Positions 4,054 through 24,947 of a DNA stretch of 64,000 nt are shown in pieces. The notes below the pieces were generated by a model. The model saw only the letters and a list, made by a program, of their open reading frames with translations. It was not told the DNA's origin and made no database searches. Origin of the DNA: an uncultured bacterium. Lineage in GTDB: Bacteria > Bacteroidota > Bacteroidia > Bacteroidales > CAIWKO01. Position 1 is the first letter of the stretch, and each line of letters opens with the position of its first letter. The translations under genes were made by a program, and so were the position numbers. Location: the NCBI GenBank assembly GCA_903862465.1, contig CAIOYH010000163.1, positions 7,289-71,288 on the forward strand, in the 5' to 3' direction.

Positions 4054-4347
4054 TCGAGAGTCCGAGAAATTTCTTTTTCATTACAATATTTCAAAAACTA
4101 TTTATTTCATAGAAGAAATAAATAGAAAGCCCTAGACAGCCAAGTTTTGTTGGATGAATTCGGCAATGTGTAATTAGCGTTAATTTTTTAGGTCAAAACG
4201 CCTAACACAAAGTTTACAAACACCCCTAAAACTTAATACGATTTAACCCTTAGGTAAAAAAATGATAACTTTAGCTTATTATTCAAACGATTTTCTCGAA
4301 GTAATTTTGCACCACAATAAATTTTGTAAAAACTAAAAAAGAAAAAA

Positions 4348-6198: not shown

Positions 6199-9100
6199 AT
6201 GAAAAAAATACTCTTAGGCGTAAGCCTTATTGTCCTAGCTATGTTTGGCAAAGCCCAAAATGGCTTGGAAAACGTTACAGTGGAAAAATACTACATTTCC
6301 AACGCTGCTGACGCGGCAGGAAGTGTCGGTCATGGCACCCTTCCCGTAGGTTCTATCACGTATAGAATTTATGCTGATATGCTCCCCGGTTATAAATTTC
6401 AAATGGCGTATGGTAACGCAAACCATAACCTGATTATGACCACTTCTACTACATTCTATAACAGCACTGATTATGGTCAAACGACTCCAACTAATACAAA
6501 AACCAACGTTGCTAAATGGACCACCATGTTAGATTCATGGTTATCTGTAGGCGGTGCTTGTAATGGAAATTTAGGTATTATGAAATCAGAAGATAATGGT
6601 GTGAACAATGTTGTGAACGCTCAAGGATTGTTAGCCAACACGGCTGCTTTGATGGGAATTCCTTTGACAACCCAAGATGGACTGATTGCAGGCACACCTG
6701 AATCTGTTACTTTTGTTGGTTTCACCACTCAAGCTGATGTTTTTGGTGATGGTACAGCTAATGGAAGTTCATTTACTTTGAACAACCAAGCTTGGTCATC
6801 CTTAAACGGATCAACAGGCGCCACAGCTAACAACAGAGTTTTGATTGCTCAAATTACTACTGATGGTGTTTTTCATTATGAATTAAACATTCAAATTGGA
6901 ACCCCAACAGGCGGCGTTGAAGTGTATGTTTCAAGTAGCCCACAAACTCCTAACGGAAATGGTCAAAATGAAATAACGATTCCTTCTTTAACAGGAACTC
7001 TTAACGTAGCTCCATCGGTAAGCATTACTGCTCCAACCAATAACACCCATTCAATCACCGGTGATGTTGTTGCTATCAATGCAACGGCTGCTGATGCTGA
7101 TGGCACTGTTACTCAAGTTGAATTCTTTGTGGATGGCGTTTCTAAAGGAATTGATAACACAGCTCCTTATACTGTTAATTATACAGGCGTAACAGGCACA
7201 CATACGTTGACAGCCGTGGCTACCGACAATGATGGTTTGACCAAAACTTCAGATCCTATCACACTTATCGTTGCTCCTAACCAAGCTCCAACCATAAGCA
7301 TCACATCACCATCAAATGGTGCTAACTTCATCACAGGTGCTGTTGTTGCTATTGCTGCTACGGCTGCTGATGCTGACGGAACAGTTACTTCTGTTGAGTT
7401 TTTTGTTGACGGTGCTTCTATAGGCGTTGATAACACAGCTCCTTATACAGCAAATTACACAAGCATTTTAGGACCTCATACCTTAACAGCTAAAGCTACT
7501 GACGATCGTAGTGCTCAAACCACTTCATCAACAATATCCATTAGTGTGTTGAACAATGTTCCTCCAACCGTTAGCTTAACAGCTCCATCAAATGGTTCAT
7601 CTGTTACAGCTCCTACCGCAGTAACTATCAATGCTACCGCTGCTGATGCTGATGGCTCTGTTACCAAAGTAGAATTCTACGTAAATGGTACTTTAATAGG
7701 TGAAGATCTAAGCGCTCCTTATTCTTTTGTTTGGACAAGCGTTGTTGGCACAGCCAATATCACCGCAAAAGCTACTGACAATGGTGGTGCATTCACCACA
7801 TCTTCTACCGTTACTATCTCTGTTTTAGATCCATTTGCTTTACCTTACAAAGTGGGTTCGGTTAGCAGTTCATGTGCCGCATCAACATTCACCCTGCCTT
7901 TCATCGCTGTGGATTCTGTTCACAACGTAATTGGTTATGACTTGGTTTTAAATTATAACATCAATAAAATAACTCCAACCGGCATCGTTACCAAAGTTGG
8001 TGATTTAGTAAATGCTAATTACTTTGATATTACCAAATATATCAACCCTGTTGCAGGAACTATCAACATCACTTTATCTTTAAATGGTAGTGCTCCCGTA
8101 GGAACTTATTTTCATGGCGTGGGTAACTTGTTTACGATAAGCTTTAATAAAGCAGGTGGTTTCAACAATGTTGATACCGCTACCGTTAGCGTTACAGGAT
8201 TACAAGAAAGTTATATTACAGGTGTTTCTACTAAATTAGCGGAATCAGGAAAATATATTTCTTACAAAGATAATATCTTCAATGGTACCTTGCAATTTTG
8301 GAATGCTTACGATCCTATCCAATATAATGTTGCCAATCCAAATCAATATTTGATTACCAATATTTATGGAACAAATGGTGCATGCGTTGCTTCTCCAACA
8401 GCAGTTCAACCTAACACATCAGGTGTTTTCAACTATGACATCAACAATGGTCAATTTATCTCCATTAAAAGAGACATTTTACCTACTGTTGATATGATGT
8501 CGGTTTTGAATGCAGGTACGGATGTTTTTCTTGCTAAAAAAGTAGTTACTTCAAATCCAACTTTCATTCCTAACGTATATCAAATGATTGCTATGGATGT
8601 TAACATGGATGGCGTTGTTAGTGCCGGCGATGTTTCTCAATTAAGCCAAAGAATTGTATTGGCAATTCCTGAATTCAAACAAGCTTGGAATTATAGTGTT
8701 GGTGGTGTTTCGGATGGTCGCCCTTCCAAAGATTGGGAATTCGTGGATTTAACCACAGTGACCAACAATGCTGCTTATCAAATTTCAACTACCTATCCTG
8801 CCAATGATGGCGTTGGATTCTCCAAATCACATGTGCCTTCAGTTGCTTTCTGTTTGGAGCCTCCCGTGTTAGATTACAACACATGTCCACAAATCACCAA
8901 CGAAACCTACGAAGGTATCTTATTGGGAGATGTTGACGGAAGTTATAAAAACATTGCTGCTGATGGTCTGTTGAAAGAAGGCTTACAATTGGCAACCGAC
9001 ACCGTTATGTTTGATTTGGCTCATGCCATTTATTCCGGTGGTGATGTTAGTGTGCCTGTTTCTATGATTACCAACACTGTTGTTAATGGTATAGATTTCG

Positions 9101-9627
9101 CAACAAAATATAATGAAAACATGTTGACTTACGATTCTACTTTTGACCAAACCGGTTACTTAGATGCGTATTCTTATTTCAACACAAACGACAGAACTAT
9201 CCGTTTCTCGGCTACAAATATCTCAGGTGGAAACATCCAAGCCGGTGTAACTTTAGTGTTAGTTCGTTTCCATAATTTAGATGGAACTATGGTTCCTGCT
9301 TACTTAGATTCAGTTAGAGCTTACATCAATGGTAGCCCTGCTATCATCAAATTGACTTCGCCTACAGTAGGTATAGCAACCAACAAAGCTGAACGCAACG
9401 TTACTGTTTATCCAAATCCAACGACTAATATTTTGAATGTGATTGTTTCTGAAGATTCAAAATTGGAAATGCTTGATTTGAATGGCAAAGTGGTTGTTGC
9501 TGAAACCAATGTGAATGCAAAACAACATCAAGTGATTGATGTTACTTCTCTCGCCAATGGCGTATATATGCTAAAAGTGTATAACGACAAGTATGTGAAA
9601 ATGCAAAAAGTTGTTATTAATAGATAA
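6199..9627 (+). CDS. Scaffoldin-like surface protein: three Ig-like repeats, two cohesin-like modules, an internal dockerin-like loop and a T9SS type-A sorting domain
   Basis: Signal peptide MKKILLGVSLIVLAMFGKAQ. Three ~91-aa Ig-like repeats (ITAP.N......G..V.I.ATAADADGTVT.VEFFVDG...G.DNTAPY) lie at about 7018-7840. The cohesin-like segments are STFTLPFIAVDSVHNVIGYDLVLNYNINKITPTG..GTINITLS..GNLFTISFNK (about 7840-8230) and GGDVSVPVSMITNTVVNGIDFATKYNENMLTYDS (about 8998-9360). DVNMDGVVSAGDVSQLSQRIV is at about 8587-8660. The C-terminus reads VTVYPNPTTNILNV...GVYMLKVYNDKYVKMQKVVINR. Confidence 0.85.
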   Translation: MKKILLGVSLIVLAMFGKAQNGLENVTVEKYYISNAADAAGSVGHGTLPVGSITYRIYADMLPGYKFQMAYGNANHNLIMTTSTTFYNSTDYGQTTPTNTKTNVAKWTTMLDSWLSVGGACNGNLGIMKSEDNGVNNVVNAQGLLANTAALMGIPLTTQDGLIAGTPESVTFVGFTTQADVFGDGTANGSSFTLNNQAWSSLNGSTGATANNRVLIAQITTDGVFHYELNIQIGTPTGGVEVYVSSSPQTPNGNGQNEITIPSLTGTLNVAPSVSITAPTNNTHSITGDVVAINATAADADGTVTQVEFFVDGVSKGIDNTAPYTVNYTGVTGTHTLTAVATDNDGLTKTSDPITLIVAPNQAPTISITSPSNGANFITGAVVAIAATAADADGTVTSVEFFVDGASIGVDNTAPYTANYTSILGPHTLTAKATDDRSAQTTSSTISISVLNNVPPTVSLTAPSNGSSVTAPTAVTINATAADADGSVTKVEFYVNGTLIGEDLSAPYSFVWTSVVGTANITAKATDNGGAFTTSSTVTISVLDPFALPYKVGSVSSSCAASTFTLPFIAVDSVHNVIGYDLVLNYNINKITPTGIVTKVGDLVNANYFDITKYINPVAGTINITLSLNGSAPVGTYFHGVGNLFTISFNKAGGFNNVDTATVSVTGLQESYITGVSTKLAESGKYISYKDNIFNGTLQFWNAYDPIQYNVANPNQYLITNIYGTNGACVASPTAVQPNTSGVFNYDINNGQFISIKRDILPTVDMMSVLNAGTDVFLAKKVVTSNPTFIPNVYQMIAMDVNMDGVVSAGDVSQLSQRIVLAIPEFKQAWNYSVGGVSDGRPSKDWEFVDLTTVTNNAAYQISTTYPANDGVGFSKSHVPSVAFCLEPPVLDYNTCPQITNETYEGILLGDVDGSYKNIAADGLLKEGLQLATDTVMFDLAHAIYSGGDVSVPVSMITNTVVNGIDFATKYNENMLTYDSTFDQTGYLDAYSYFNTNDRTIRFSATNISGGNIQAGVTLVLVRFHNLDGTMVPAYLDSVRAYINGSPAIIKLTSPTVGIATNKAERNVTVYPNPTTNILNVIVSEDSKLEMLDLNGKVVVAETNVNAKQHQVIDVTSLANGVYMLKVYNDKYVKMQKVVINR

Positions 9628-10684: not shown

Positions 10685-10910
10685 TTCAAAAAGTAATAAA
10701 GACAAAAATATATATAATATCTAGACAATAAACAACTATAAAAGAACTTAATGAAAGATTAATGTACACTTAATGTAAAGGTAACATTGGCAATCTAAAA
10801 TTGATATTGTTGCAAGGATTTTAAAGAAGATAAACGATAGCAATAAATCACCGTCCAAACGCCAAAACCTTCTTGGTTTTTGTTTCTTTCAGCCAAGGAC
10901 GCATCAAAAC

Positions 10911-11264
10911 TCAACAAATTTCGGGAATACAACTGCCCACTTGTAATAACCATGTGGCTATAATGGGCAATATGAAATGGGTTGAAGGTTTGGGTTTCGG
11001 AGGTAGCTCTACCAAAAGAAGCAAATCGCCGCAGTGCATAAATTCGCCCGGCGATATTTGGAGCGTATTGGCTATAATCATCATCGTATCGAATTGGATG
11101 TTCATTTTTCCATGCTCTATCAAACTCAAATTCGAGCGAGGAATGCCCGAAAGCTCGCTAAAATGCTCTTGTGTGTACTTTTTATCACATCTTAGCTCAT
11201 AGAATCTGTTTCCATAAGCTATACTTTGCGTCGGAAACAGAATTGGTTTGCCGTTTCTTTCCAT
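10911..11264 (-). CDS. XRE-family helix-turn-helix transcriptional regulator (C-terminal part uncertain, possible frameshift)
   Basis: HTH_3-like core YELRCDKKYTQEHFSELSGIPRSNLSLIEHGKMNIQFDTMMIIANTLQISPGEF. The tail after PGEF looks unlike protein sequence, and another frame stays open down to 10795. Confidence 0.6.
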   Translation of the reverse strand: MERNGKPILFPTQSIAYGNRFYELRCDKKYTQEHFSELSGIPRSNLSLIEHGKMNIQFDTMMIIANTLQISPGEFMHCGDLLLLVELPPKPKPSTHFILPIIATWLLQVGSCIPEIC

Positions 11265-11486
11265 AATATGAATTTTAATTTAAAATGTTGCATATAAACA
11301 ACAAAGATTTTTGTTTTTGAATGAATATTATATATATTTTTGCAGGGTCAAAATTAGAAAAAATCTTTGAACTAAAAACGACATAAATAAAATTATTTTT
11401 GTTCTTTGAAACCCGTGTAAAAACACATTAAAGGTATGTGGCTTTCGCCTAAAATATTAGACGAAAAAGGCAACATAAATTGCATA

Positions 11487-11820
11487 TTAGGCTTCGGCAA
11501 GCAACTTAGGGGCTTCGGAGAGAGACTCAGAGGCTACTTCGAACGACTTAGTGGCTGTGGAGAGCGAATTAGAAGCTTCGGAGAGCGAATTAGCGACTGT
11601 GGCGAACGACTTAGCTGCTAAGGATAGAGAATTAGCGACTGCATCGAACGACTTAAAGGCTTAGGCGAGAGAATTAGCGACTGCGGCGAGAGAATAAGAG
11701 GCTGAGGAGAGAGAATCAGAGGCTGCGGCGAACGACTTAGGGGCTTCGGAGGGAGAATCAGAGGCTTCGGAGAGCGAATTAGAGGCTTCGGAGAGCGAAT
11801 TAGGGGAAGAATTGCCCTCC
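11487..11820. repeat. 21-bp tandem array #2, 16 units (consensus TTAGAGGCTTCGGAGAGCGAA)
   Basis: Unit starts at 11506, 11527, ... 11800, 21 bp apart; the first unit is 19 bp. Two interleaved unit subtypes end in GAGAGCGAA or CGAACGAC. Confidence 0.95.
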
Positions 11821-11933
11821 GAAATGAAACCGCCTCATAATGAAGCAATTTAATGTAGATAAAAGTGGGTTTATACGCAAAATGGAATTATCAATTAAAT
11901 AAAATAAATGTTTCACTAAAAAACCTAATTATT

Positions 11934-12548
11934 ATGAACACAATTAAATACAGTTATTCAAAACTAGCCCAAGGCACTTTTCTCGAAAAACTTGGCTTTA
12001 TTATTTTTTCATGTACCGACAACGTCAACTTCCCCACATTGGTCGTAACTGTTGCTCTTATTATTGCCAAAAAAGAAGCATACGAAGAGCAATTAGACAA
12101 GTCGAAAGCGGGAGATCATCAAGCCACCACCTTGGCTCGGAAATACAGAAAAGAATTGGAGTTGATGTTGAAAAAGAATGGAATCTACATCAATTTTACT
12201 GCCGATGGAGACATAACAAAGTTAATTTCTAGCGGTTATGATTTGGCTAAAATTCCGGTAAGAACACCTCGTCCGGAAATAGAAATATTGCCATCGTCGC
12301 AACGCGGTGTAGCAAAAGTTATCATTCAAAAAGGTGAAAAGGATGTTGCTTATCAAGTGGAAACACATGCCGACCCCATTCCACCTTTGCCTGCCGACCA
12401 ACGTTGGCAACGGCAACCTATGTGTACAAGACATTATCAATCCATTTCGGGGATTCCTGTTGACACAAATATGTGGTTACGCTATTATACGGTTTCTCCT
12501 GATGGCGAAATCGGACCAAAAGGACCCTTTAAATTCAAAATTTTATAA
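11934..12548 (+). CDS. Hypothetical protein: helical N-terminal part plus Fn3/Ig-like C-terminal domain (paralog of 49772..50434)
   Basis: ATG 11934 (MNTIKYSYSKL); the track start is the upstream GTG 11865. It shares an architecture with 49772..50434: ..SSGYDLAK / ..RNGYGVGK, then a Pro-containing linker, then beta-rich G.VAK.I..K..K.Y.V. Confidence 0.65.
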   Translation: MNTIKYSYSKLAQGTFLEKLGFIIFSCTDNVNFPTLVVTVALIIAKKEAYEEQLDKSKAGDHQATTLARKYRKELELMLKKNGIYINFTADGDITKLISSGYDLAKIPVRTPRPEIEILPSSQRGVAKVIIQKGEKDVAYQVETHADPIPPLPADQRWQRQPMCTRHYQSISGIPVDTNMWLRYYTVSPDGEIGPKGPFKFKIL

Positions 12549-12641
12549 GGGGGATTTGGAAGTTTTCCTTTAGGGGAAATTGTGGATTCATCAGGAAAAC
12601 ATAAAATGGTATCTTGATGATGAAAGATAAAACTATGAAAA

Positions 12642-12669
12642 AGCTTGCTCGAAAGGGTGAGCTTTTTTT
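12642..12669 (+). terminator. Candidate rho-independent terminator
   Basis: agcttgctc-GAAA-gggtgagct stem (9 bp including G-U pairs) with a GAAA tetraloop, then T7. Confidence 0.55.
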
Positions 12670-12785
12670 ATGGTTACATTGTTGGATGGTTCTATTGTTG
12701 TTGGTTTAGTAAAGGTGTTGTGGTTAGCACTTGTTTTTTTTGGCGTGTTGACTTTAACCTATAAAATTAATGGGTATGTTCAAAA

Positions 12786-13412
12786 TTACTGCACCGCATC
12801 AAACAATGCCACTATGGTGGAGATAATAAATTCAATTCCGATAGCAATGACAATGAACCCCACGATACGCGAAAGCGCATTGATACCCGATTCGCCAAGG
12901 TTTTTTACAATAATTCGGGAAACCAACAACACCACAAAAGTGATGAGCGAAACCAAAACGACAGAAGATAAAAGCAACATCACATCGGTCAAACGTTCAT
13001 ACTGTTGACGATACGTTATGAGCATGGAAATAGCCCCCGGACCTGCAAGCATCGGTATGGCTAAGGGTGTTAAGGAAACTTCTTGCCGAGTTAAGGCGTC
13101 TTGTTTCACTTCTTCTTTAATTCCTTTATGTTTCATGATGGAGCCTGTCAGCAAAGCAAAGCCCGAAGAGGCTATAATCAAGCCGCCCGTAATTTTTAAT
13201 GCGTTCAGACTGATGCCGAAAAAAGAAAGAATATAATTGCCCGCGAAAAAAGAAATAAGCAGTATCACTAACATATTAATGGAGGTCCGCAAGGCGATAG
13301 AACGGATTTGTTGTTGCGATTTGTTCCCGGTCAATCCGACGAAAATAGGAACTGTAGCTAACGGATTGATTACCGAGATTAAGGCTACGAGGCTTGTTAA
13401 AAAGTAATTCAT
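12786..13412 (-). CDS. MarC family (UPF0056) integral membrane protein
   Basis: ATG 13412 gives MNYFLTSLVALISVINPLATVPIFVGLT, the typical MarC N-terminus. The protein is polytopic and hydrophobic throughout. Confidence 0.8.
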   Translation of the reverse strand: MNYFLTSLVALISVINPLATVPIFVGLTGNKSQQQIRSIALRTSINMLVILLISFFAGNYILSFFGISLNALKITGGLIIASSGFALLTGSIMKHKGIKEEVKQDALTRQEVSLTPLAIPMLAGPGAISMLITYRQQYERLTDVMLLLSSVVLVSLITFVVLLVSRIIVKNLGESGINALSRIVGFIVIAIGIEFIISTIVALFDAVQ

Positions 13413-13751
13413 TTTTTTTGCAAAAGTACGCTTAGTGACACTCCTGCATATCAACCTATCATTAAATTTTTTGATGCAGTATTAAATTATGTGGTGCTCA
13501 AGTTTAAGATTTACAAACAGTAAATTCAAAGAGTAAGTGAAAGGAATATCCATTTCCACTATTCATTTCCAAAAATTATTGTCCTTCCTACCAACATTTT
13601 TGGTCATAATAAATTTAAAAACAACCCATGCATTTTAAGATGTTGTTTTCTCATTTCAATGCTAATAGTAAGCTGTTTTGGCTGTGGAAAAATACACATT
13701 AAGTTAACGATTTTATATTGCTGAGTTAACTTTCGGAATTTTTTGTAGCAG

Positions 13752-13759
13752 TACTTTTG
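13752..13759 (+). promoter_or_regulatory. Candidate -7 promoter box (TAnnTTTG) within the 13-mer gtacttttgttgc
   Basis: tacttttg lies 72 bp upstream of ATG 13831. The identical 13-mer gtacttttgttgc is also found at 35867-35879. Confidence 0.45.
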
Positions 13760-13830
13760 TTGCGCGATTTTTATCGCAAAAAAAGAGAGACTCACAAACA
13801 AAAAATCAGTTCATAAATTAAAAAAAAGAC

Positions 13831-16800
13831 ATGAAAAAGAATCTATTTGCATTCGTTTTATTGGTAACACTTTTTAGTGTTGCGAAATCATTCGGACAAA
13901 CCAACACACGGTTTAACGATGGTTATCTCACTGTTTACAAAGCCACCTCGGCTTCTGCACTAGCCAACACAGGAACCGCCATTGTGGCTGAAGAATACAA
14001 CACCACCACAACTACACAAGCGGCTCCCAATTATAGTGTTGCCATTCCAACAGCCACGGGAAACAAGCTTGTTGTTTCGGGCACTGCCACATCTTCGGGA
14101 GGCATGACGCGTTCCGAAAATGGCAGATATTTATTGATGCCGGGCTACAATGGTTTGATAGGCGATGCCAATTCCACCTTTACCACCAATGGCGCAGTCA
14201 GAACGATAAATGGAACCGGAACTGTGGGCGCAGGAATTGCGGCAAATGGTTTACTTTGGCTGTCCGCTAGTAATAATTTAAGAGGAGCTACAAGCGATGA
14301 TGGCACCAATTATTGGATTTCGGGCAATGGAGTTGGCATACAAACTTCCACAACAGGAAACCCAATAACCACAATTACAACAACTTCAACCAACAATCGC
14401 GATGTAGTCATTTATAATGGACAATTGTATTTTACTACCGGTGCCGGTTCGCAAGGAATTTATAGTGTTTCAACAGGGAAACCTATCACAATCGGACAAG
14501 TTTCAACCCGATTGTTTACTCCTTTAAATACCGATACCTATGCTTTTTCAATCAGCCCCGATGCCACTACCTTATATTATGTGGCTTCCACCGGAGGCGG
14601 CATTTATCGTTGCACCTATAACGGAACTACTTGGACCACCGGAACGCAAATCGTTAGCGGCGCGGGCTACACCGGCATTGCTGTGGATTGGTCGAATTAT
14701 GCTTTTAGTGCTGCGGCTGCCAATGGAGCTAGAATTTTTGCTTCCAATCCTTCCACTATCATTGCTGCAAACGACAACGGAACGGCGGTTACTACTACCA
14801 CAATTTTAAGAACCGAGCCTGCTCCAACCATGAATGCATTTCGACAAATTGCATTTTCGCCCATCAAACAAACCATTACCCTCGGTGCAAATACGCCAAA
14901 CGCTTCCAATTTGAGTCCTTCCACAAACAATAATGTTTTATTCCAATTCAATTTGAATGCCAATGAAGGAAATGCTACACTGAAAAAATTAATTCTAAAT
15001 CAATCGGGAACCGCCACCATAGGTACAGGTAATGACATCAGCAATTTTAAACTTATTGATGATGCTAATAACAATGGTATAGCCGATCCTGCCGAACTTG
15101 CTTCCCCTTTGGCTACAGGCACTGTCGCTTCTTCAAATATTACATTCAGTTCTATTGTTCTTTCATCCTATATAACTGAAGGTACAAGCAAAAACTTTAT
15201 TATGGTGGGAGATGTTTCAGCCTCTGCGCCTAATGGAGCAACTTTTGTTCCAAGTATTGTTTCCAACAAAACATTAAACGGAAACAATTATACCACCAAT
15301 GCAGTCAATGCGGGAAATAGTTGGGTAACGATTGGTGCAACACCACCAACAGGCAACACATTGACTATTGCAAGCTGCACAGCACTGAGTATTACATCTC
15401 AAGCTGTAAGTCCAACGGCAGTTTGCGAAGGCAGCGGCACAGCAAAAATCTATACACATCTGATCGGCACAGCACCTTTCACCTATCAATGGAAAGAGAA
15501 CAATGTTCCGATTTCCAATAATGCTACTTACAGTGGAGCTACCTCTGATACGCTGAAAATTACGAATCCAAGTCTGTCATTAAATGGGAATACCTATAAA
15601 TGTGTTGTTTCAAATTGTGCGGGAACAGATTCCACCAACAATCTTGCAACCTTGACTGTTATTGCAGCTCCAAGCCAACCCACCGCAAGCGCCACAGGGC
15701 AACCTACGTGTTCTGTTGCCACAGGAGCCATTACGGTTACTGCACCTACGGGAGTTGGAATCACCTACAGCATTGATGGAACAACATACACCAACACCAC
15801 GGGCATTTTCAATGATGTAGCTGCAGGAAATTATTATGTTACGGTTAAGAATTCTGACAACTGTCCTTCACCTCAATCACCTCAGATAACCATCAATGCC
15901 CAACCGCAGACACCTGCCGCTCCAACAGTTAGTGTAACCGAACCTACATGTTCTTCTGCAAATGGAAATGTAGCCGTAACATCAACCACAACAGGCTTGA
16001 CCTTTAGTAACGATGGCGTAAACTATGCAGGGTATGCTTCACCATTTGTTTATGCAGCGAATGCCACCTATAGTATTACGGCTCAAAACACAAATGGATG
16101 TATCTCTTCGGCAGCTATCGGAACCTTAGCAGCTCAACCACAAACTCCATCTGCTCCGTCAGTAAGTGTAACACAACCAACCTGTGCATCTTCAAATGGA
16201 ACAGTAGCCATAACATCTTCCACAACGGGATTAACGTTCAGTACTGATAGTACAAACTATGCCGCATATACTTCCCCATTTGTGGTTGCTGCCAATGCCG
16301 CCTATAGCATCAAAGCAAGGAATGCAAGCGGATGTATATCCACCGCAGTTGCAGGAACCATGGGTGCTCAACCACAAACTCCTGCTGTTCCTTCAGTAAG
16401 CCTAACCCAACCAACTTGTTCATCTGCTACAGGAACCATAGCGATAACATCTTCTACAATAGGATTAACTTTTACTACCGATAGTGCGAATTTTGCTGCA
16501 TACGTTGCCCCATTTACCTTTGCAGCCAATGCAGCCTATAGTATCATGGCAAGAAATGCTGATGGATGTGTTTCAACAGCTACAACAGGCACAATGAATG
16601 CTCAACCGCAAACACCTGCTTCGCCTTCCGTAAGCCTTACCCAACCTACTTGTTCATCTGCCACCGGATCGGTAGCGATAACTTCTACCACAACGGGATT
16701 AACTTTCAGCACGGATGGTATTAACTATGAAGTGTATGCTTCACCTTTTGTTGTTTCATCCGGTGCAGCCTACAGCATCACGGCAAGAAATGCCGATGGA

Positions 16801-18036
16801 TGTACCTCATTGGCAACCGTAGGAACCATGGGAGTTCAACCCTCTACACCCAATACTCCTTCAGTAAACGTAACGCCACCTACTTGTTCATCTGCCACCG
16901 GAACTGTAGCGATAACTTCTTCCACCACAGGATTAACTTTCAGCACCGATGGAACAAACTACGCAGCATACAGTTCTCCGTATGTTGTTGCTGCCAATGC
17001 AGCCTATAGCATCACTGCGAGAAATGGCAACGGATGTGTATCAACAGCCGTAACGGGAACCATGGGTGCTCAACCACAGACTCCTGCAGCTCCAACGGTA
17101 AGTGTTACCCAACCTACCTTTGTTTCTGCCACCGGATTTGTTACTATAACATCTTCCACCACCGATTTAACCTTCAGCACGAATGGAATCAACTATGCTG
17201 CTTATGTTGCTCCTTACGAATTTGCTGCAAGTGCAGCGTATAGCATCACTGCAAGAAATCTTGCCGGATGTGTATCTGTTGCAACCACAGGCACCCTGAA
17301 TGCGCAACCTCAAAACCAAACTCCTCCATCGGTTAGTATTACGTCTCCGGCAAATGCCTCCGTGTTTGATGTTTCGGATACCATTCATATAGTTGTTGAT
17401 GCTGTGGCTAATGGTGGAAATATTGTTCATGTTGATTTTTTAATGGGTGATGTTTCTATAGGAACAGACTCTATTGCTCCTTATACCAAGAATATTATTA
17501 CGACGCCGGGAGTACATACCCTAAAGGCGATAGCTTATGACAATCATCTATTGTCAGATACGTCTGTAGCGGTAAACATTGTTGCAAACAATATAAAACA
17601 TCCGGTTGTCACGATTAATGCTCCAATTAATATCTATTTATTATACCTTGACGGAGATTCTATAACGGTTTCGACAAGCACATTTGGTGCTGCAGGCATT
17701 GCCTTCTTGGAATTCTTTATTGATAATGTTTCATTTGGCACAGACAATACGTTTCCGTATGCTAAAAAATTCTTGGGCGACTTCGGCTCTCATGCCATAA
17801 CTGCAAAAGTACATGATTTATTAGGTGGAGTATATACTTCTCCTGCGGCTAATTTATTTGTGAAGTTTAAACCATCCGATTTCAACAATGATGCAGTGAT
17901 TGATATTAATGATTATTCAATGTTTGTTGGTAGCTTTGGACAATCATGCAATTGTATGCAGGATTTAAACAGAGATGGCGTGGTAAATATAAACGACTTC
18001 TCCATATTTGTTGGCACTTTCGGTCAACATCATTAA
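13831..18036 (+). CDS. Giant secreted multi-repeat protein ending in a two-segment dockerin-like module
   Basis: Signal peptide MKKNLFAFVLLVTLFSVAKSFGQ. The ~520-aa N-terminal module is paralogous to that of 18316..22992. An Ig I-set-like domain (FTYQWKENNVPISNN..YKCVVSNCAG) follows. Then come seven ~78-aa repeats (PQTP..P.VS.TQPTCSS..G.VAITSSTTGLTFS.DG.NY..Y..PF...A.AAYSI.ARN..GC.S), two Ig-like domains, and the C-terminus DFNNDAVIDINDYSMFVGSFGQ..DLNRDGVVNINDFSIFVGTFGQ. Confidence 0.9.
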   Translation: MKKNLFAFVLLVTLFSVAKSFGQTNTRFNDGYLTVYKATSASALANTGTAIVAEEYNTTTTTQAAPNYSVAIPTATGNKLVVSGTATSSGGMTRSENGRYLLMPGYNGLIGDANSTFTTNGAVRTINGTGTVGAGIAANGLLWLSASNNLRGATSDDGTNYWISGNGVGIQTSTTGNPITTITTTSTNNRDVVIYNGQLYFTTGAGSQGIYSVSTGKPITIGQVSTRLFTPLNTDTYAFSISPDATTLYYVASTGGGIYRCTYNGTTWTTGTQIVSGAGYTGIAVDWSNYAFSAAAANGARIFASNPSTIIAANDNGTAVTTTTILRTEPAPTMNAFRQIAFSPIKQTITLGANTPNASNLSPSTNNNVLFQFNLNANEGNATLKKLILNQSGTATIGTGNDISNFKLIDDANNNGIADPAELASPLATGTVASSNITFSSIVLSSYITEGTSKNFIMVGDVSASAPNGATFVPSIVSNKTLNGNNYTTNAVNAGNSWVTIGATPPTGNTLTIASCTALSITSQAVSPTAVCEGSGTAKIYTHLIGTAPFTYQWKENNVPISNNATYSGATSDTLKITNPSLSLNGNTYKCVVSNCAGTDSTNNLATLTVIAAPSQPTASATGQPTCSVATGAITVTAPTGVGITYSIDGTTYTNTTGIFNDVAAGNYYVTVKNSDNCPSPQSPQITINAQPQTPAAPTVSVTEPTCSSANGNVAVTSTTTGLTFSNDGVNYAGYASPFVYAANATYSITAQNTNGCISSAAIGTLAAQPQTPSAPSVSVTQPTCASSNGTVAITSSTTGLTFSTDSTNYAAYTSPFVVAANAAYSIKARNASGCISTAVAGTMGAQPQTPAVPSVSLTQPTCSSATGTIAITSSTIGLTFTTDSANFAAYVAPFTFAANAAYSIMARNADGCVSTATTGTMNAQPQTPASPSVSLTQPTCSSATGSVAITSTTTGLTFSTDGINYEVYASPFVVSSGAAYSITARNADGCTSLATVGTMGVQPSTPNTPSVNVTPPTCSSATGTVAITSSTTGLTFSTDGTNYAAYSSPYVVAANAAYSITARNGNGCVSTAVTGTMGAQPQTPAAPTVSVTQPTFVSATGFVTITSSTTDLTFSTNGINYAAYVAPYEFAASAAYSITARNLAGCVSVATTGTLNAQPQNQTPPSVSITSPANASVFDVSDTIHIVVDAVANGGNIVHVDFLMGDVSIGTDSIAPYTKNIITTPGVHTLKAIAYDNHLLSDTSVAVNIVANNIKHPVVTINAPINIYLLYLDGDSITVSTSTFGAAGIAFLEFFIDNVSFGTDNTFPYAKKFLGDFGSHAITAKVHDLLGGVYTSPAANLFVKFKPSDFNNDAVIDINDYSMFVGSFGQSCNCMQDLNRDGVVNINDFSIFVGTFGQHH
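15904..17307 (+). repeat. Six in-frame 234-bp tandem repeats inside the gene (a more divergent unit precedes them from about 15670)
   Basis: PQTP-encoding unit starts at 15904, 16138, 16372, 16606, 16840 and 17074, each 234 bp apart. Confidence 0.9.
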
Positions 18037-18060
18037 GCTAAACGCAAAAAACCAATAAAA

Positions 18061-18088
18061 AAGCCCAAACAAGTGTTTGGGCTTTTTT
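18061..18088 (+). terminator. Rho-independent terminator
   Basis: aagcccaaaca / tgtttgggctt stem followed by a T-run, 25 bp after the stop at 18036. Confidence 0.8.
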
Positions 18089-18256
18089 ATTTTGTGTATT
18101 TTAAGTCACACCAATGGCTAGTAGTTTTATCATTGGTTTTTAGTTCCGATGGATAATCTAACAATCACTGTTTCAATTTAGAAATAATGCTTAGAACTTA
18201 ACGCTAACCTAATGATTATATAATACTACGGTCATCTTTAAAACTTATCCTATCTG

Positions 18257-18264
18257 TAATTTTG
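18257..18264 (+). promoter_or_regulatory. Candidate -7 promoter box (TAnnTTTG)
   Basis: taattttg lies 52 bp upstream of ATG 18316. Confidence 0.4.
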
Positions 18265-18315
18265 CAAACAATATTCTTTACACAAAAATGACTAATTAAT
18301 TGAAACAAAAAAAAC

Positions 18316-21300
18316 ATGAAAAAACACCTATTAACTCTATTATTGCTTGCTACATCTGCTTGCATGATCACATCACAAGGACAAACTACCACTCGATTTA
18401 ATGATGGTTACCTCACTGTATTTAAAGTAACTTCGGCTTCCCCATTAACCAATACAGGAACAGCAATCGTGGCTGAAGAATATAGTACGACGACTCCCGC
18501 ACAAACTGCACCCAATTACAGTGTTGCCATACCAACAGTCACAGGGAACAAACTTGTTGTTTCGGGCTCAGCAACGGCTGCCGGAGGCGTATCACGCTCA
18601 GAAAACGGTAGATATTTACTCATGCCGGGTTATAATGGTTTGATTGGCGATGCCAATACTACTTTTACCACCAATGCTGCCATCCGAACCATTAATGGAA
18701 TGGGCACCGTGGGAGCAGGAATTTCGGCAAATGGCATACTTTGGCTTGCCGGAAATAATAATGTTAGAGGTGCCGCTAGTGATGATGGCACCAATTATTG
18801 GATTTCGGGCAATGGAGTAGGAATTCAAACTTCAACAACAGGCAACCCCATAACCACGGTTACAACCACCTCGACCAACAATCGTGATGTTACCATTTAT
18901 AATGGACAATTGTATCTAACTACCGGTTCTTCTTCGCAAGGAATTTATAGTATTGGAATAGGGAAACCTATCACAAGCGGAACCACTTCAACCCGATTGT
19001 TTGCGCCCACAAATACCGATACCTATGCTTTTTCAATCAGCCCCGATGGCGCTACTATATATTATGTTTCCTCCACCGCAGGAGGTATTTATCGTAGCAC
19101 CTTTAATGGAACCGTTTGGACCACCGGAACTCAAATCGTTAGCGGAGTTGGTTACACAGGCATAGCTGTTGATTGGACAAACTATACATTTAGCTCTACG
19201 GCTGCAAACGGCGCTCGAATCTTCGCTTCCAATCCTTCCACCATTATTGCTGCAAACGATAATGGAACAACAGTGGCAACCACCATGATTTTAAGAACGG
19301 AACCGGCTCCAACCATGAATGCATTTCGTCAGTTAGCTTTTTCCCCTTCAAAGCAAACCATTAGCTTAGGTGCTAACACTCCTTTGGCAAGCACAGTTTC
19401 TACGGCATCAAACGATGTAGTGTTATTCCAATTCAATTTAAGTGCAGATGAAGGAAATGCAACATTAAAAAAATTAATAATAAATCAACAAGGAACTGCA
19501 ACGCTTGGTGCAGGAAATGATATAAGCAATTTTAAACTTATTGAAGATGCTAATGATAACGGTATTGCTGATCCTAACGAGCTTTCTGCTGCTCTTGCAA
19601 TTGGTAATGTATTGAGTTCTTCCATCACGTTCAGTTCCTTAATTCTTTCGTCATATATCAATGAAGGTACAAGCAGAAACTTTATTATCACAGGTGATGT
19701 TTCTCCCATGGCAAGCAATAATGCTACTTTCATTCCAAGCATAGTTTCTAACAAGACATTAAACGGAATCAATTACACAACCAACGCAATCAATGCCGGA
19801 AATAGTTGGATAACGATAGGAGCAACGCCACCAACCGGCAATCCTATTACAATTTCGGCTTGTTCACCTGTTATTGTTTCAACACAACCCATAAGTCCGG
19901 CTTCTATATGTGCAGGTTCAGCCACGGCACTCTTTTATACTTCTGTTAGCGGCACAGCTCCTTTTACCTATCAATGGGAAGAAAATAATGTTCCCATCTC
20001 CAATAATGGAATCTATAGTGGAACAAATACAGATACTCTTAAAGTTATCAATCCAAGTATATCTTTAAATGGAAAAACATATAGATGTGTTATTTCAAAC
20101 TGTTCAAGTATAAATGCAGATACTACTGATAACACAGCAAGCTTGACTGTGCTTCCTTTAGCCATTCAACCTGTACCATTTTCAGACAGTTCTGCTACCG
20201 TAGTAGCCGGACAAACTAGTGTTGTTTACACCGTGCCAAATGATGTATCGGTATTAACCTATCAATGGAGTTATAGCGGAACAGGAGCAACAATCAATGG
20301 AATCGGAAACTCTATAACAATGAGTTTTTCTACTATAGCAACCTCCGGGACATTAAGCGTAGTGGCAATAGATTACTGTGGAAGTAGCCTTGCTCGCACG
20401 TTGAATATAACAGTAAATCCATTGCCGGGCTTGATGCGTATTACTGAATATATGTATCAAGGCGCAGGTTCAGGTGGTGCAGGCGAGTTTGTTGAATTTA
20501 CAAATGTTGGCGGAACTAGTGTTGATATGATGGGATGGAGTTTTGATGATAATACTGAACTTGCGGGTTCGCAAAGTTTAAGTGCTTTTGGTGTGGTTCA
20601 GCCCGGCGAATCCGTAATTTTGACCGAAATACCTGCTGCAACATTTCGCACGAATTGGAATTTATGTCCTCAAGTAAAAATAATAGGAGGTTGCACCAAT
20701 AACTTAGGTCGCGAAGATGAAATAAATCTGTATAATGCTTCAAATAACTTGGTTGACAGACTGACTTATGGCGACCAAACCTATTCACCGGGAAGTATCA
20801 GAACAACCACCAAAAGCGGATGGACAAATGCTGCCGGATTAGGAGCAAACACCATCATCAATTGGACCTTATCTTTGAATGCTGATGCAGAAGCTTCTTA
20901 TGCGTCTTCTCTTGGTGAAATTGGTAGCCCCGGCAAAAGCACCCGTGCAATTGTCAGTTTCAATCCTTGCAATGTTCCAAATGGAACACCAACCATTGTG
21001 ATGGATGTGGCTACCACCACAAACTATCTTGATGCGGGTATAACAACAGCACCTGTAGGCTCTTTTGGAATTAGTGGCGTTATCAACGATCCCACCGACC
21101 CTGCCACCATTTTAGGCATTGATTTTACTATCAATGACGATGTAACACCCGTTGCAAACCTTACAGTAACAACATCAAGCAGCAATACAGCCGTAGTCCC
21201 GAATGCAAATATTATTATGACAGGCAACAATGCATCTAGAAATATCAAAATTACTCCCGCAAGTGTTGGATATTCCAATATTACCATTACCGTTAGTGAT

Positions 21301-22992
21301 GGCACTTTGAGTTCATCTTTTGTAATCAACTATGCAGCTTCATTAGCATCCACAACTCCTACTTCTACTTTTTGGCATACAGGCATGTCGGATGCATCGG
21401 ATGCTGTTGCCATAGATGATAATTATTATATGTTGGGCGATGATGAAATGAATATCATCAATGTCTATTCCCGTTCGAATTCAGGTTTGCAATTTGCCTC
21501 ATTTGAATATACCTCATATTTAGCCTTGCCCGACCCTTCCAAGCCCGAAGTTGATTTGGAAGCAGGCACAAAAAGCCCTACAAATTCAAATAAAGTGTAT
21601 TGGCTTGGTTCTATGAGTAACGGCAAAGCTCCTTTTGATAATAAACCCAACAGAAATCGTATCTTTGCTACCAATTTTACGGGCACCGGAGCCGCAACGA
21701 ATTTTTCTTTTGCAGGATATTATGGTGATTTAAGAAACAATCTAATTGCTTGGGGTGATGCTCATGGCTACAACTTTACCGCAAGTGCGGCAGCAGGGGT
21801 TGATTCAAAAACAGATTATGGTTTTTCTGCCGAAGCATTAGCTTTTGCTCCTGACCACACTACTTTATATATTGGTTTAAGAGCGCCCCTTGTTCCTGTA
21901 TCTAACAGAACAAAGGCTGTTATTGCTCCTATCACAAATTTCGAATCATGGTTCAACAATGGCTCACCTTTGGGCAATCCAACATTTGGTGCACCTCTTG
22001 AAATTGATTTGGGAGGAAGAAGTTTCCGCGATTTAATAGTACTTTCAAATGGCACTTATATTATTGTTGCAGGTAATTGTGCAAGTACGCCCATGACAAG
22101 TGCACTTTTCAAATGGACAGGCAATGCAAGCGATGCACCTATTTTGTTAAGCTCATCTGCCGATGGAATTTTAAATATGGAAGGTGCCATGCAAGTCAAT
22201 ACAGGTGGAAATCTTTCGATGTCGAAATTGCAAGTTATTTGTGATGGTGGCGATGAAATTTTGTATAATGATGGTTCTGCGGCTAAAGATTTAGCGAATA
22301 TAAATCTTCGCAAATTCCGTTCAGATAATTTAAGTTCTTTAGATTTATGTATGCCCAAATCAGGAGATACTACTGCTGTGGCTTGTACTAATTTTTCGTG
22401 GTACGGGACTAATTATAGCACCTCACAAACACCTACGCATGTGTTTACTACCCTTTCGGGTTGCGACTCTACTGTTACACTTCACTTGACTATAAATACT
22501 TCGCCTGCATTGCCCGTGATAACTCAAAATGGTTCGGTTTTAAGTTCCACTCTTGCTTCAAGTTATCAATGGTATTATAATGGCACCATCATCAATGGCG
22601 CCACTTCTTCCACCTATACAACTTCAGCGAATGGCTCTTATTTTGTTGTTGTTACCAATGCAAGCGGATGCGAAGCTACCTCTAATGCTTTTGATGTGCT
22701 CACAACAAGTGTGGAAGCGTCTACCTTTGAGAATGCAATTGTAGCATATCCAAATCCGTTTTCAGGCAATACATCTATCAATCTGACTTTAGCAAACAAA
22801 TCAAAAGTGAGCGTTGAAGTGATTTCGCTTTTAGGCGAACATATTCAAACCCTTGTGAATTCTGATTTAGATGCAGGGAAACATACTTTCGATTTTGATG
22901 CAAAACAATTGGGTTATTCCTCTGGAGTTTATTTTGTAAAATTATCTATCAACGATAAAATAATCACTAAAAAGATAATTCAAACAAACTAA
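18316..22992 (+). CDS. Giant surface protein: shared N-terminal module, Ig-like domains, lamin-tail domain (LTD), DUF3616/phytase-like region, T9SS type-A sorting domain
   Basis: Signal peptide MKKHLLTLLLLATSACMITSQGQ. The first ~520 aa are collinear with 13831..18036. The LTD-like segment reads MRITEYMYQGAGSGGAGEFVEFTNVGGTSVDMMGWSFDD. DDNYYMLGDDEMNIINVYSR...WLGSMSNGK resembles the DUF3616/esterase-like phytase fold. The C-terminus reads VAYPNPFSGNTSINL...GVYFVKLSINDKIITKKIIQTN. Confidence 0.9.
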   Translation: MKKHLLTLLLLATSACMITSQGQTTTRFNDGYLTVFKVTSASPLTNTGTAIVAEEYSTTTPAQTAPNYSVAIPTVTGNKLVVSGSATAAGGVSRSENGRYLLMPGYNGLIGDANTTFTTNAAIRTINGMGTVGAGISANGILWLAGNNNVRGAASDDGTNYWISGNGVGIQTSTTGNPITTVTTTSTNNRDVTIYNGQLYLTTGSSSQGIYSIGIGKPITSGTTSTRLFAPTNTDTYAFSISPDGATIYYVSSTAGGIYRSTFNGTVWTTGTQIVSGVGYTGIAVDWTNYTFSSTAANGARIFASNPSTIIAANDNGTTVATTMILRTEPAPTMNAFRQLAFSPSKQTISLGANTPLASTVSTASNDVVLFQFNLSADEGNATLKKLIINQQGTATLGAGNDISNFKLIEDANDNGIADPNELSAALAIGNVLSSSITFSSLILSSYINEGTSRNFIITGDVSPMASNNATFIPSIVSNKTLNGINYTTNAINAGNSWITIGATPPTGNPITISACSPVIVSTQPISPASICAGSATALFYTSVSGTAPFTYQWEENNVPISNNGIYSGTNTDTLKVINPSISLNGKTYRCVISNCSSINADTTDNTASLTVLPLAIQPVPFSDSSATVVAGQTSVVYTVPNDVSVLTYQWSYSGTGATINGIGNSITMSFSTIATSGTLSVVAIDYCGSSLARTLNITVNPLPGLMRITEYMYQGAGSGGAGEFVEFTNVGGTSVDMMGWSFDDNTELAGSQSLSAFGVVQPGESVILTEIPAATFRTNWNLCPQVKIIGGCTNNLGREDEINLYNASNNLVDRLTYGDQTYSPGSIRTTTKSGWTNAAGLGANTIINWTLSLNADAEASYASSLGEIGSPGKSTRAIVSFNPCNVPNGTPTIVMDVATTTNYLDAGITTAPVGSFGISGVINDPTDPATILGIDFTINDDVTPVANLTVTTSSSNTAVVPNANIIMTGNNASRNIKITPASVGYSNITITVSDGTLSSSFVINYAASLASTTPTSTFWHTGMSDASDAVAIDDNYYMLGDDEMNIINVYSRSNSGLQFASFEYTSYLALPDPSKPEVDLEAGTKSPTNSNKVYWLGSMSNGKAPFDNKPNRNRIFATNFTGTGAATNFSFAGYYGDLRNNLIAWGDAHGYNFTASAAAGVDSKTDYGFSAEALAFAPDHTTLYIGLRAPLVPVSNRTKAVIAPITNFESWFNNGSPLGNPTFGAPLEIDLGGRSFRDLIVLSNGTYIIVAGNCASTPMTSALFKWTGNASDAPILLSSSADGILNMEGAMQVNTGGNLSMSKLQVICDGGDEILYNDGSAAKDLANINLRKFRSDNLSSLDLCMPKSGDTTAVACTNFSWYGTNYSTSQTPTHVFTTLSGCDSTVTLHLTINTSPALPVITQNGSVLSSTLASSYQWYYNGTIINGATSSTYTTSANGSYFVVVTNASGCEATSNAFDVLTTSVEASTFENAIVAYPNPFSGNTSINLTLANKSKVSVEVISLLGEHIQTLVNSDLDAGKHTFDFDAKQLGYSSGVYFVKLSINDKIITKKIIQTN

Positions 22993-23630: not shown

Positions 23631-24947
23631 TTATTGCTTGATAATCTTGAAGGTTTTGTAATTGTTTATCTTAATGAAATAGATACCTTTGCTCAAAGTT
23701 TCCATTCCAATTGTAATTAATTCGTCGCTTGAAGTTACAGTTTTTAAAGTTTGTCCACATACATTGATCAGGTTAATGCTTATGGTTTCATGCGTGTTGT
23801 TTTGGACATTAACAAGGTTTTGAGTTGGGTTAGGATAGATGGAGATTTGATTTGCTATATCATTTGATGCCACAGCAGCAATCGTTTCTGTTTGATATCC
23901 ACAATAAATAGGGTTAGTCCAAGAGATGCTACTGTTCCCCGATAACAATTCAATACGATAGAATGCTCTTTGATAGGGAGTGTCGGTAAATTCTATCGTT
24001 GGATTTGAAGAAGAAATAGCAAGGGGTTGACTAAAGAGCGGTATGCCATTTTTAATCACTTTTACACTTAAATTTGAGCCACTGCCAACCAAATTAACGC
24101 GGAAAGTTACGGCAGAATTGGTGTCGGCAATGGCATCTCCCATCATATAATTAAAGGTATTATTCCCATGTATATCTGCAAAGAACTCACAACGAGGATC
24201 AGTTGGCGAATTGCTGATACAAACATGCCCGTTTCTTATTCCATCAATAATTCCTTCTCCATTTGGTTCTGCTGAATAAACCCATGTGGAAGGCGAACCT
24301 AAATTTGGATACACAGAAGGAAGCCAATAACTGAGTTTGTGCATATCGCTCCCACCCACGCCTGTAATTCTTTTGCCCGACATCAATAAAGGTTCCCAAA
24401 CGGTGGTAATAACACTATTATTATTGCTCAGCAGGTAAGAAATAGGTCCGTTGAGAATTTCTATACTTGGGAATTCGAAATTGTAGCCAACATCCCAAAG
24501 CAAAGCACCATTTAACGGATGATTGATAGAGAACAAACCTCCTTGCGATTTAACTATGCTCGCTGCTTTAGCAGGTTGTTTCGCTGTGTTGGCAGCAAAT
24601 ATAGAGTCGTAAGGAAATGGGGTGCTGTTCCAAATGCCTGCATGACCAATGTCGGTTGTCCATTCCATACCATAAAGCAAAATCATGTTGTTGCTATGAT
24701 AGGCTGTGTCCGACCACGTGATAGGATTGCCCACATAAGGCGTGTAAGTGTTGTCGTGGTCGGTAATCACATAAAAGTTGAATCCTTTGCTTTCGGCATT
24801 AGCAATAACGCTCGATACAGGCGATTCACCATCGCTGTAGGTGCTGTGGGAATGTAAGTCACCTTTATACCAACTCCCTGTTTGCGAAAAGCAAACGTTG
24901 GCGGTGATGACAATTACTGTCAAAATTGAAAATAATTTTTTCTTCAT
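23631..24947 (-). CDS. Secreted PHP-family (CehA/McbA-like) metallo-phosphoesterase with a T9SS type-A sorting domain
   Basis: Signal peptide MKKKLFSILTVIVITANVCFSQ. PHP motifs are GDLHSHSTYSDG, VITDHD, GMEW, INHP and GGSDMH. The C-terminus reads ISIYPNPTQNLVNV...GIYFIKINNYKTFKIIKQ. Confidence 0.8.
   Translation of the reverse strand: MKKKLFSILTVIVITANVCFSQTGSWYKGDLHSHSTYSDGESPVSSVIANAESKGFNFYVITDHDNTYTPYVGNPITWSDTAYHSNNMILLYGMEWTTDIGHAGIWNSTPFPYDSIFAANTAKQPAKAASIVKSQGGLFSINHPLNGALLWDVGYNFEFPSIEILNGPISYLLSNNNSVITTVWEPLLMSGKRITGVGGSDMHKLSYWLPSVYPNLGSPSTWVYSAEPNGEGIIDGIRNGHVCISNSPTDPRCEFFADIHGNNTFNYMMGDAIADTNSAVTFRVNLVGSGSNLSVKVIKNGIPLFSQPLAISSSNPTIEFTDTPYQRAFYRIELLSGNSSISWTNPIYCGYQTETIAAVASNDIANQISIYPNPTQNLVNVQNNTHETISINLINVCGQTLKTVTSSDELITIGMETLSKGIYFIKINNYKTFKIIKQ

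Follow-up and report, generated by a model that had tools for sequence, protein, structure and literature searches.

A probable compact dockerin on an adhesin-like protein without a T9SS sorting domain, and a putative cohesin scaffold upstream of it, in an uncultured member of the Bacteroidales

The stretch of DNA considered here, 64,000 nucleotides long and referred to as the window, comes from an uncultured bacterium of the Bacteroidales (lineage CAIWKO01; assembly GCA_903862465.1, contig CAIOYH010000163.1, positions 7,289 to 71,288 of the forward strand). Its gene 13831..18036, here called the target, encodes an adhesin-like protein with an apparent dockerin at its C-terminus and without a C-terminal sorting domain (CTD) of the T9SS, or type IX secretion system; upstream lies gene 6199..9627, for a putative scaffold with two cohesin-fold modules. 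The last 52 residues of the target, preceded by ...KFKPS, read DFNNDAVIDINDYSMFVGSFGQ-SCNCMQ-DLNRDGVVNINDFSIFVGTFGQ-HH and a stop. The two 22-residue segments are identical to each other at 14 of 22 positions, and at the calcium-ligand positions 1, 3, 5, 9 and 12 both carry D, N, D, D/N and D, followed by a hydrophobic helix. An earlier sequence-only reading had described such a duplicated segment of calcium loop and helix, and the description holds, except that the linker it gave as 9 aa is actually 6 aa long and that its D-x-N-x-D-G motif fits the second copy exactly while position 6 of the first loop is Ala instead of Gly. The start given there, 17866, corresponds to F1346, four residues ahead of the first Asp (nt 17878), and the end, 18033, to the last codon.

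In front of this tail the target protein has a putative Sec signal, an N-terminal domain of about 500 aa, an Ig domain, repeats of about 78 aa and two Big_7 domains; what Pfam and NCBIfam recognize in it is of Ig type (Big_7, I-set) plus the repeats. Neither database gave a catalytic or carbohydrate-binding module (CBM) family, such as would mark a cellulosome component. The N-terminus has, by eye, the typical look of a Sec signal, with KK, a hydrophobic core and SFG followed by Q, and surface export as a lipoprotein was rejected, the signal peptide having no lipobox Cys. The repeats, 'QPQTPxxPSVSxTQPTCSSATGxVAITSSTTGLTFSTDG...', have two conserved Cys each and were assigned no Pfam family. 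A T9SS CTD of type A (TIGR04183/PF18962) or type B (TIGR04131/PF13585) gave no Pfam or NCBIfam match in the target at E<=1, so that the lack of a T9SS signal, also noted in the earlier reading, stands, and the dockerin occupies the last 52 residues instead. The gene ends genuinely at its stop, because a hairpin with a T-run sits directly behind it, with no CTD remnant. An independently assembled strain, L081, reached through its ortholog of the target's paralog 18316..22992, covers 711 residues of the target protein up to its C-terminus, and the dockerin tail is unchanged there, some dozen substitutions all lying upstream of it; the exact target protein had no match on other recorded contigs. 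On the terminator and the identical tail in a second strain, a truncated or frameshifted gene that had lost its CTD was rejected, and the same evidence disposes of an assembly artefact.

The best Pfam match of the isolated 57-aa tail is Dockerin_1 (PF00404), at 19.1 bits and E 1.5e-3 against a cut-off of 22.9; the Pfam scan of the full-length target did not list it. The best NCBIfam match is NF041540, 'GC-type dockerin domain-anchored protein' (24.1 bits, E 3.6e-5, cut-off 29), aligned from aa 1350 to 1398 and to model positions 4-64 of 67, which spans both segments. The earlier reading had proposed the Dockerin_1 search as its check, a score under threshold to count against a dockerin; the score does lie under it, and is overruled by comparison with the PDB, by a subfamily profile and by the predicted fold. 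With phmmer, the last 60 aa found 2y3n_B first among the PDB sequences, at E 9.3e-6 and over both segments, and the NagH dockerin of C. perfringens (2jnk/2ozn) second; since the match to a solved dockerin runs over the full length at that E-value, it is not one of chance. A profile of 30 subfamily tails matched about 30 solved dockerins in the PDB, the best again 2y3n_B (E 7e-17), with dozens of dockerins from cellulosomes between 1e-8 and 1e-5 (4fl4_A, 1daq, 2mte and 5lxv_B at about 1e-8) and EF-hand proteins at 1e-5 or weaker. The template-free AlphaFold2 model of the tail, for which the subfamily alignment served as input (pLDDT 90.3), has antiparallel helices at 22-30 and 50-58, and in a Foldseek comparison with the PDB ranks 1-29 were all dockerins or dockerin-containing chains, 2y3n_B being the best fold match (TM 0.80/0.85, rmsd 1.9 A, 41% identity).

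A generic EF-hand was rejected on three counts: the EF-hand models PF00036 and PF13499 score only 15.1 and 15.2 bits on the tail against cut-offs of 25.4 and 30, the subfamily profile ranks EF-hand proteins below dockerins, and EF-hands of the calmodulin/troponin type superimpose at a TM of about 0.29, none above 0.30. Close members of the subfamily score 21.6-26.3 bits with Dockerin_1, with P0178 (26.3) and P0211 (25.6) above the cut-off. Canonical dockerin linkers are about 8-18 residues long and usually contain a third helix; the linker here has 6 residues against 11 in 2y3n_B, the alignment needs a 5-residue gap, and DSSP finds no helix in the linker of the model. The earlier verdict of a dockerin is thus borne out by the phmmer, profile and fold comparisons; its 'canonical-looking' is only partly right, in view of the short, helix-free linker and of the membership of a Cys-bracketed, non-cellulosomal subfamily. 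There is little doubt, in our judgement, that the tail is a true homolog of dockerins, divergent and compact, with the dockerin fold.

An exhaustive phmmer search with the tail over 1.84 billion representative sequences returned 1816 proteins at E<=1e-3, and in 58 of the best ~150 relatives the two-segment module ends no more than 8 residues from the C-terminus. The common pattern of the nearest subfamily is [C]-P-x-D...segment 1...F-G/N-x-x-C-x-C-x-x-D...segment 2...F-G/N-x-x-C, then 1-3 residues and the stop, with linkers of 6-7 residues, and a pair of Cys apparently brackets each segment; of these Cys the target has only the central C-x-C, the two outer ones being absent. The architectures that bear the tail are those of Bacteroidota surface proteins (SprB repeats, PKD, lamin-tail, Ig, Big_7, matrixin peptidase), and some proteins (P0151, P0153 and P0201) have dockerin repeats ahead of an ordinary T9SS domain. 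A word-indexed search with a 60-aa tail profile gave 12 candidates, all of them short fragments, and exposed a single-segment variant, CPTD...FGTSC. From these sequences the module type is best described as a compact, sometimes single-segment, apparently disulfide-bracketed and non-cellulosomal dockerin.

The putative scaffold is the only cohesin protein within the window. It would comprise three Big_7 domains, a cohesin, an internal dockerin, a second cohesin and a type A CTD. Tested in pieces, its residues 715-914 give Dockerin_1 at 28 bits, above the cut-off, and residues 915-1074 give Pfam Cohesin at 18.5 bits, below the cut-off of 24.1; many homologs of the scaffold carry precomputed PF00963 plus PF18962. 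The AlphaFold2 model of residues 531-1074 (pLDDT 89.4, pTM 0.79) has two beta-sandwiches around a helical module and resembles solved cohesins at TMt 0.72-0.77, with cohesin-X-dockerin fragments of CipA as top matches and 2xdh among the best. Together these bear out the cohesin-like modules that the sequence-only reading had seen in 6199..9627. The internal dockerin sits between the two cohesins and its motif A-x-D-V-N-x-D-G-x-x-S-A-x-D is (nearly) invariant across 48 homologs. The model suggests a fixed cohesin-dockerin-cohesin arrangement, and the internal dockerin could bind within the molecule or polymerize scaffolds head to tail.

When one genome from each species was scanned for relatives of the scaffold region, 260 stretches came up, and the locus counts given here come from the best 80 of these, all from Bacteroidota-type metagenome-assembled genomes (MAGs), all uncultured and mostly of lakes and rivers. 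The order is that of a cassette: a gene for a Fib_succ_major lipoprotein (52 of the 80), one for a protein of about 600 aa with a single dockerin segment (62) and the cohesin scaffold (80). The second of these, the partner, is in the window separated from the scaffold by only 27 nt from stop to start codon. Its 607-aa protein ends in ...NPTDLNNDGITDINDFSIFIGKFNQLDQ and the stop, has no CTD and gave no match in Pfam, NCBIfam or the PDB sequences; its sequence gives the impression of a beta-helix. The homologs at the 62 loci are of about 550-670 aa, encoded directly upstream of the scaffold, and close with one dockerin-like segment, behind which 0-4 residues remain before the stop. In most of these orthologs the segment is bracketed as CPTD...FNQSC, and in the clade of the window it reads NPTD...FNQLDQ. 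This 'half dockerin' may pair as a homodimer, because one segment alone cannot form the two-helix dockerin fold.

Two-segment dockerin proteins of about 150-300 aa are encoded just downstream of the scaffold at about ten loci (L010, L011, L033, L037, L038, L040, L055, L063, L071 and L072), and their helix signatures are often unlike that of the upstream partner, a pattern that hints at two specificities for the scaffold's two cohesins. Giant proteins with two-segment tails (2036 and 1362 aa) lie upstream at 2 loci. Several MAG records with the cassette (L028, L044, L046, L022, L048, L056 and L058) are titled Actinomyces viscosus, Candidatus Kuenenia stuttgartiensis, Bifidobacterium breve, Chitinophaga pinensis or Chryseobacterium gleum; these implausible titles are probably taxonomic mislabels in the public records.

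The earlier reading had asked how a protein with a Sec signal and no T9SS domain would cross the outer membrane to meet a surface cohesin. The partner at 62 of the 80 loci is of like design, having a signal peptide and a dockerin segment at its C-terminus but no CTD, and since the conserved partner shares this, the puzzle is legitimate and wider than the target.

The tail of the target resembles that of the partner closely. Segment 2 is identical to the partner segment of its own genome at 15 of 22 positions and at 10 of 13 in the helix, which in known dockerins carries the recognition positions; partners of other genomes give a median of 11/22, with mostly 5-6/13 in the helix. To the partners of the two nearest clades segment 2 is identical at 17 of 22 positions. 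The flanking cysteines kept by most relatives are lost in both the target and the partner of the window, and matching within a genome is also seen at L045, where partner and giant protein share DFLIFAPAFG, and at L065. These likenesses suggest that the dockerins of target and partner recognize the same cohesin. They speak, too, against a tail that is only a calcium-binding stabilizing or oligomerizing module without a cohesin partner, on a protein that is periplasmic or whose location has nothing to do with the scaffold: the helix residues match the same-genome partner well above background, every other domain of the target (Ig, Big_7 and the N-terminal domain of T9SS cargo) is of cell-surface adhesin type, and the gene of a cohesin protein lies 4 kb from the target. 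Such a module is nonetheless in keeping with scores below the thresholds of the curated dockerin models, with a target gene in a strain-variable island outside the cassette, and with the occurrence of the tail among the 1816 representatives, often in tandem arrays and in lineages without known cohesins; we regard it as unlikely.

The island deserves a word of its own. The segment ~10808..22861 of the window, some 12 kb with an ORF of no known function, MarC, the target and its paralog, is missing from the sister strains L001 and L003, in which the flanks are 93-95% identical. A second segment that is absent or replaced in the same two strains corresponds to window positions 637..4193, a 3.5-kb block with the type B CTD gene 1378..4053. 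Origin of the island from a mobile element or phage was rejected, there being no tRNAs and no compositional (GC) break. Both segments look like strain-variable islands of surface proteins, and the target itself, from its distribution, looks like a strain-variable accessory client.

Table 1. Positions in the window of the target, the putative scaffold, the partner and other T9SS-related features
Feature	Position	Strand	Basis or remark
Target gene, 1401-aa adhesin-like protein	13831..18036	+	uninterrupted 1401-codon ORF
Putative signal peptide MKKNLFAFVLLVTLFSVAKSFG, with cleavage by signal peptidase I predicted ahead of Gln23	13831..13896	+	read by eye from the sequence
N-terminal ~500-aa domain, 73% identical to paralog	13897..15390	+	homolog comparison
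Tandem array, 234-bp units, 5.5 copies, 72% matches	15897..17180	+	encodes the ~78-aa repeats
Big_7 bacterial Ig domain, aa 1166-1233	17326..17529	+	better-scoring of two Pfam Big_7 stretches in the target
Dockerin segment 1, DFNNDAVIDINDYSMFVGSFGQ, aa 1350-1371	17878..17943	+	sequence, Pfam, PDB match, model
6-aa linker SCNCMQ	17944..17961	+	C-x-C is the centre of the subfamily Cys bracket; outer Cys absent here
Dockerin segment 2, DLNRDGVVNINDFSIFVGTFGQ, aa 1378-1399, then HH and stop	17962..18027	+	sequence, Pfam, PDB match, model
Terminator-like hairpin and T-run	18054..18091	+	directly 3' of the target stop; no CTD remnant
Putative scaffold, 1142 aa	6199..9627	+	Pfam, NCBIfam, model; cassette gene
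Cohesin-fold module 1, aa ~550-700	7846..8298	+	model, fold match
Internal dockerin of the scaffold, other sequence type (...DVNMDGVVSAGDVSQLSQRIV), aa 772-819	8512..8655	+	Dockerin_1 28 bits, above cut-off
Cohesin-fold module 2, aa ~935-1053	9001..9357	+	Pfam Cohesin 18.5 bits, model, homolog PF00963
T9SS type A CTD of the scaffold	9406..9618	+	Pfam, NCBIfam
Partner gene, 607-aa protein, putative signal peptide, no CTD	4348..6171	+	directly upstream of the scaffold; cassette gene
Single dockerin segment DLNNDGITDINDFSIFIGKFNQ at the extreme C-terminus of the partner	6094..6159	+	15/22 identical to target segment 2
Lipoprotein gene of the cassette	87..536		cassette gene
Paralog, 1558 aa, N-terminal domain as in the target, T9SS type A CTD at nt 22747-22980	18316..22992	+	Pfam, NCBIfam
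T9SS cargo gene, type B (CHU_C) and PKD	1378..4053		
T9SS cargo gene, PHP-domain protein with type A CTD	23631..24947	-	
T9SS cargo gene, 325-aa protein with type A CTD	35785..36762		

The paralog just downstream of the target carries at its end, as the earlier reading had said, a type A domain of the T9SS (Por_Secre_tail 38.3 bits, TIGR04183 44.7 bits). The N-terminal domain that the two proteins share, at 18382..19900 in the paralog, is common to more than 40 large proteins, nearly all of which end in type A or B CTDs; Pfam gives it no family above cut-off, only weak PD40 and sialidase-lectin matches. An exception among these homologs is P0040, which ends in a two-segment dockerin. Since P0211 (related to the C-terminal region of the paralog) and P0253 (related to the N-terminus of the scaffold) are likewise dockerin-ended, the CTD and the dockerin behave, as far as such comparisons go, as alternative C-terminal modules on the same protein families. 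The CTDs of the paralog, the scaffold and the three other cargo proteins of Table 1 score 38-67 bits, and the organism clearly relies heavily on the T9SS, with no T9SS machinery gene lying within the window.

Such swapping invites the thought that the tail, either by itself or together with the Ig domains in front of it, acts as a non-canonical C-terminal signal for export or sorting, read directly by the T9SS or an adaptor, so that the protein would cross by itself, with later binding to a cohesin optional. The module takes the place of the CTD in otherwise homologous cargo families, it lies 0-8 residues from the C-terminus in the relatives counted above, where T9SS signals sit, and the nearest NCBIfam model is named for dockerin-anchored proteins; non-canonical C-terminal signals of the T9SS do exist, as in ChiA of F. 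johnsoniae. However, the known CTDs are beta-sandwiches, unlike the two-helix F-hand pair of the tail, dockerins are found internally as well, ahead of an ordinary CTD in P0151, P0153, P0201 and the scaffold, and so are not in general terminal signals, and the conserved pairing with cohesin genes favours docking. An export signal of this kind seems to us improbable.

We come now to the reading that we prefer, that the dockerin of the target docks this CTD-less, adhesin-like protein on a cohesin of the neighbouring, T9SS-anchored scaffold; judged from sequences and models, it stands a little better than an even chance of being correct. The two calcium-binding F-hand segments with their 6-residue linker would tether the target non-covalently to a cohesin; the scaffold would be exported by the T9SS and fixed to the surface through its own type A CTD; and the dockerin would stand in for the covalent anchoring by a CTD that the paralog and most relatives use. 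That the target binds this particular scaffold, which cohesin it chooses and how it passes the outer membrane is what we infer.

Several observations weigh against docking on the scaffold. The tail remains below the curated cut-offs of both Dockerin_1 and NF041540. The target gene is not in the cassette, lying 4.2 kb downstream of it and beyond divergently oriented genes, no homolog of the target was found at the other 80 loci, and the 12-kb island is absent from the two sister strains. The scaffold's two cohesins may already be occupied, by its own internal dockerin and by the conserved partner. For many dockerins outside cellulosomes, as Peer et al. 2009 reportedly found, no partner cohesin is known. 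Finally, the literature searched held no report of CTD-less proteins riding the T9SS (piggyback or hitchhiker export), and none of cohesin domains on T9SS cargo.

As to the route, our preferred guess is that target and scaffold would assemble in the periplasm and the client be co-exported with its CTD-bearing scaffold. More generally, the CTD-less partner and accessory clients would dock on the scaffold cohesins in the periplasm and be carried, folded, through the translocon, to be displayed on the surface with no covalent anchor, a hitchhiking that we put forward tentatively and consider doubtful. It is favoured because the partner, without a CTD, is encoded right upstream of the CTD-bearing scaffold at 62 of the 80 loci and because the T9SS moves folded proteins (PMC9251779). 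The clients might instead be released non-specifically, in outer-membrane vesicles or by lysis, and then be captured from outside by surface cohesins, whether on the cell of origin or on its neighbours. Cohesins and dockerins normally assemble outside the cell, the CTD of the scaffold predicts exposure on the surface, and Pfam and NCBIfam show no dedicated route in the target sequence, all of which would suit release and capture; this would be inefficient, though, for planktonic freshwater cells, and the related loci are from lake and river MAGs, while the retention of the partner gene directly upstream of the scaffold speaks for a stoichiometric assembly within the cell that makes both proteins. 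We think release and recapture very unlikely, and return to co-export as the working guess.

Cohesin-dockerin systems are understood mainly as devices for extracellular assembly in monoderm cellulolytic bacteria. Here a compact dockerin sits on surface proteins of T9SS style that have no sorting domain, and the accompanying cassette recurs in many uncultured freshwater Bacteroidota. If docking on the scaffold proves true, it would provide a second way to decorate the Bacteroidota surface, non-covalent and modular, beside anchoring by CTDs, and adhesins could be exchanged at the level of strains by way of dockerin-tagged genes in variable islands. If hitchhiking proves true, it would be the first such T9SS mechanism, with the pairing of cohesin and dockerin acting as a secretion signal supplied by the partner. 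Whether the T9SS carries a partner that has no CTD becomes a testable question, and the compact, sometimes single-segment module could serve as a small affinity tag. The literature searched offered no description of this compact subfamily with its Cys brackets, of the single-segment form, of the three-gene cassette or of the swapping of CTD and dockerin in adhesin families.

Among known systems, the closest solved example of the tail is the cellulosomal dockerin 2y3n_B, from Cel48 of Pseudobacteroides/'Bacteroides' cellulosolvens, bound to a type II cohesin. Both have two F-hands of about 22 residues with ligands at 1, 3, 5, 9 and 12 and two antiparallel helices, at the C-terminus of a secreted protein. 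The target differs in its linker (6 residues vs. 11, with C-x-C and without a third helix) and in its sub-cut-off Pfam score, and, in contrast to cellulosomal dockerins generally, it has no enzyme or CBM and belongs to a diderm member of the Bacteroidota with a T9SS rather than to a Firmicute. Non-cellulosomal cohesin and dockerin modules, reportedly the subject of Peer et al. 2009, provide a second comparison: like those of C. perfringens NagH-NagJ (2ozn) and the Archaeoglobus cohesin (2xdh), the modules here are on non-cellulolytic carriers in organisms without cellulosomes, while the T9SS CTD on the cohesin carrier, the conserved three-gene cassette and the single-segment 'half dockerin' set them apart. 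With the GC-type dockerin of NF041540 the tail shares its terminal position and, through the ...WGxCP tails among subfamily relatives, Cys-flanked segments; the helix signature is DF-x-x-F-x-G-x-F-G/N-Q in the target vs. DLL-x-LL-x-x-WG-x-C in the model. For the route only, there is an analogy in the 'hitchhiker' export of Tat and peroxisomal systems, where a folded subunit without a signal is carried by a signal-bearing partner.

Earlier reports of dockerins in Bacteroidota exist (PMC6487960, PMC10266427), and a system much like the present one is that of Ca. Stygibacter (Cloacimonadota), for which a cellulosome-like complex has been proposed around a cohesin scaffoldin with a T9SS-type CTD (PMC8542988). 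Its clients are hydrolases with a signal peptide, a C-terminal dockerin and no CTD, and the question of the outer membrane was not addressed (PMC8542988). Both follow one scheme, in which the cohesin scaffold has a CTD and the dockerin clients have none. The Ca. Stygibacter scaffold, though, is 3755 aa long with tandem cohesins and CBMs, while here two cohesins flank the scaffold's own dockerin, and the candidate clients, in another phylum, are a protein of about 600 aa without a family match and an adhesin-like giant.

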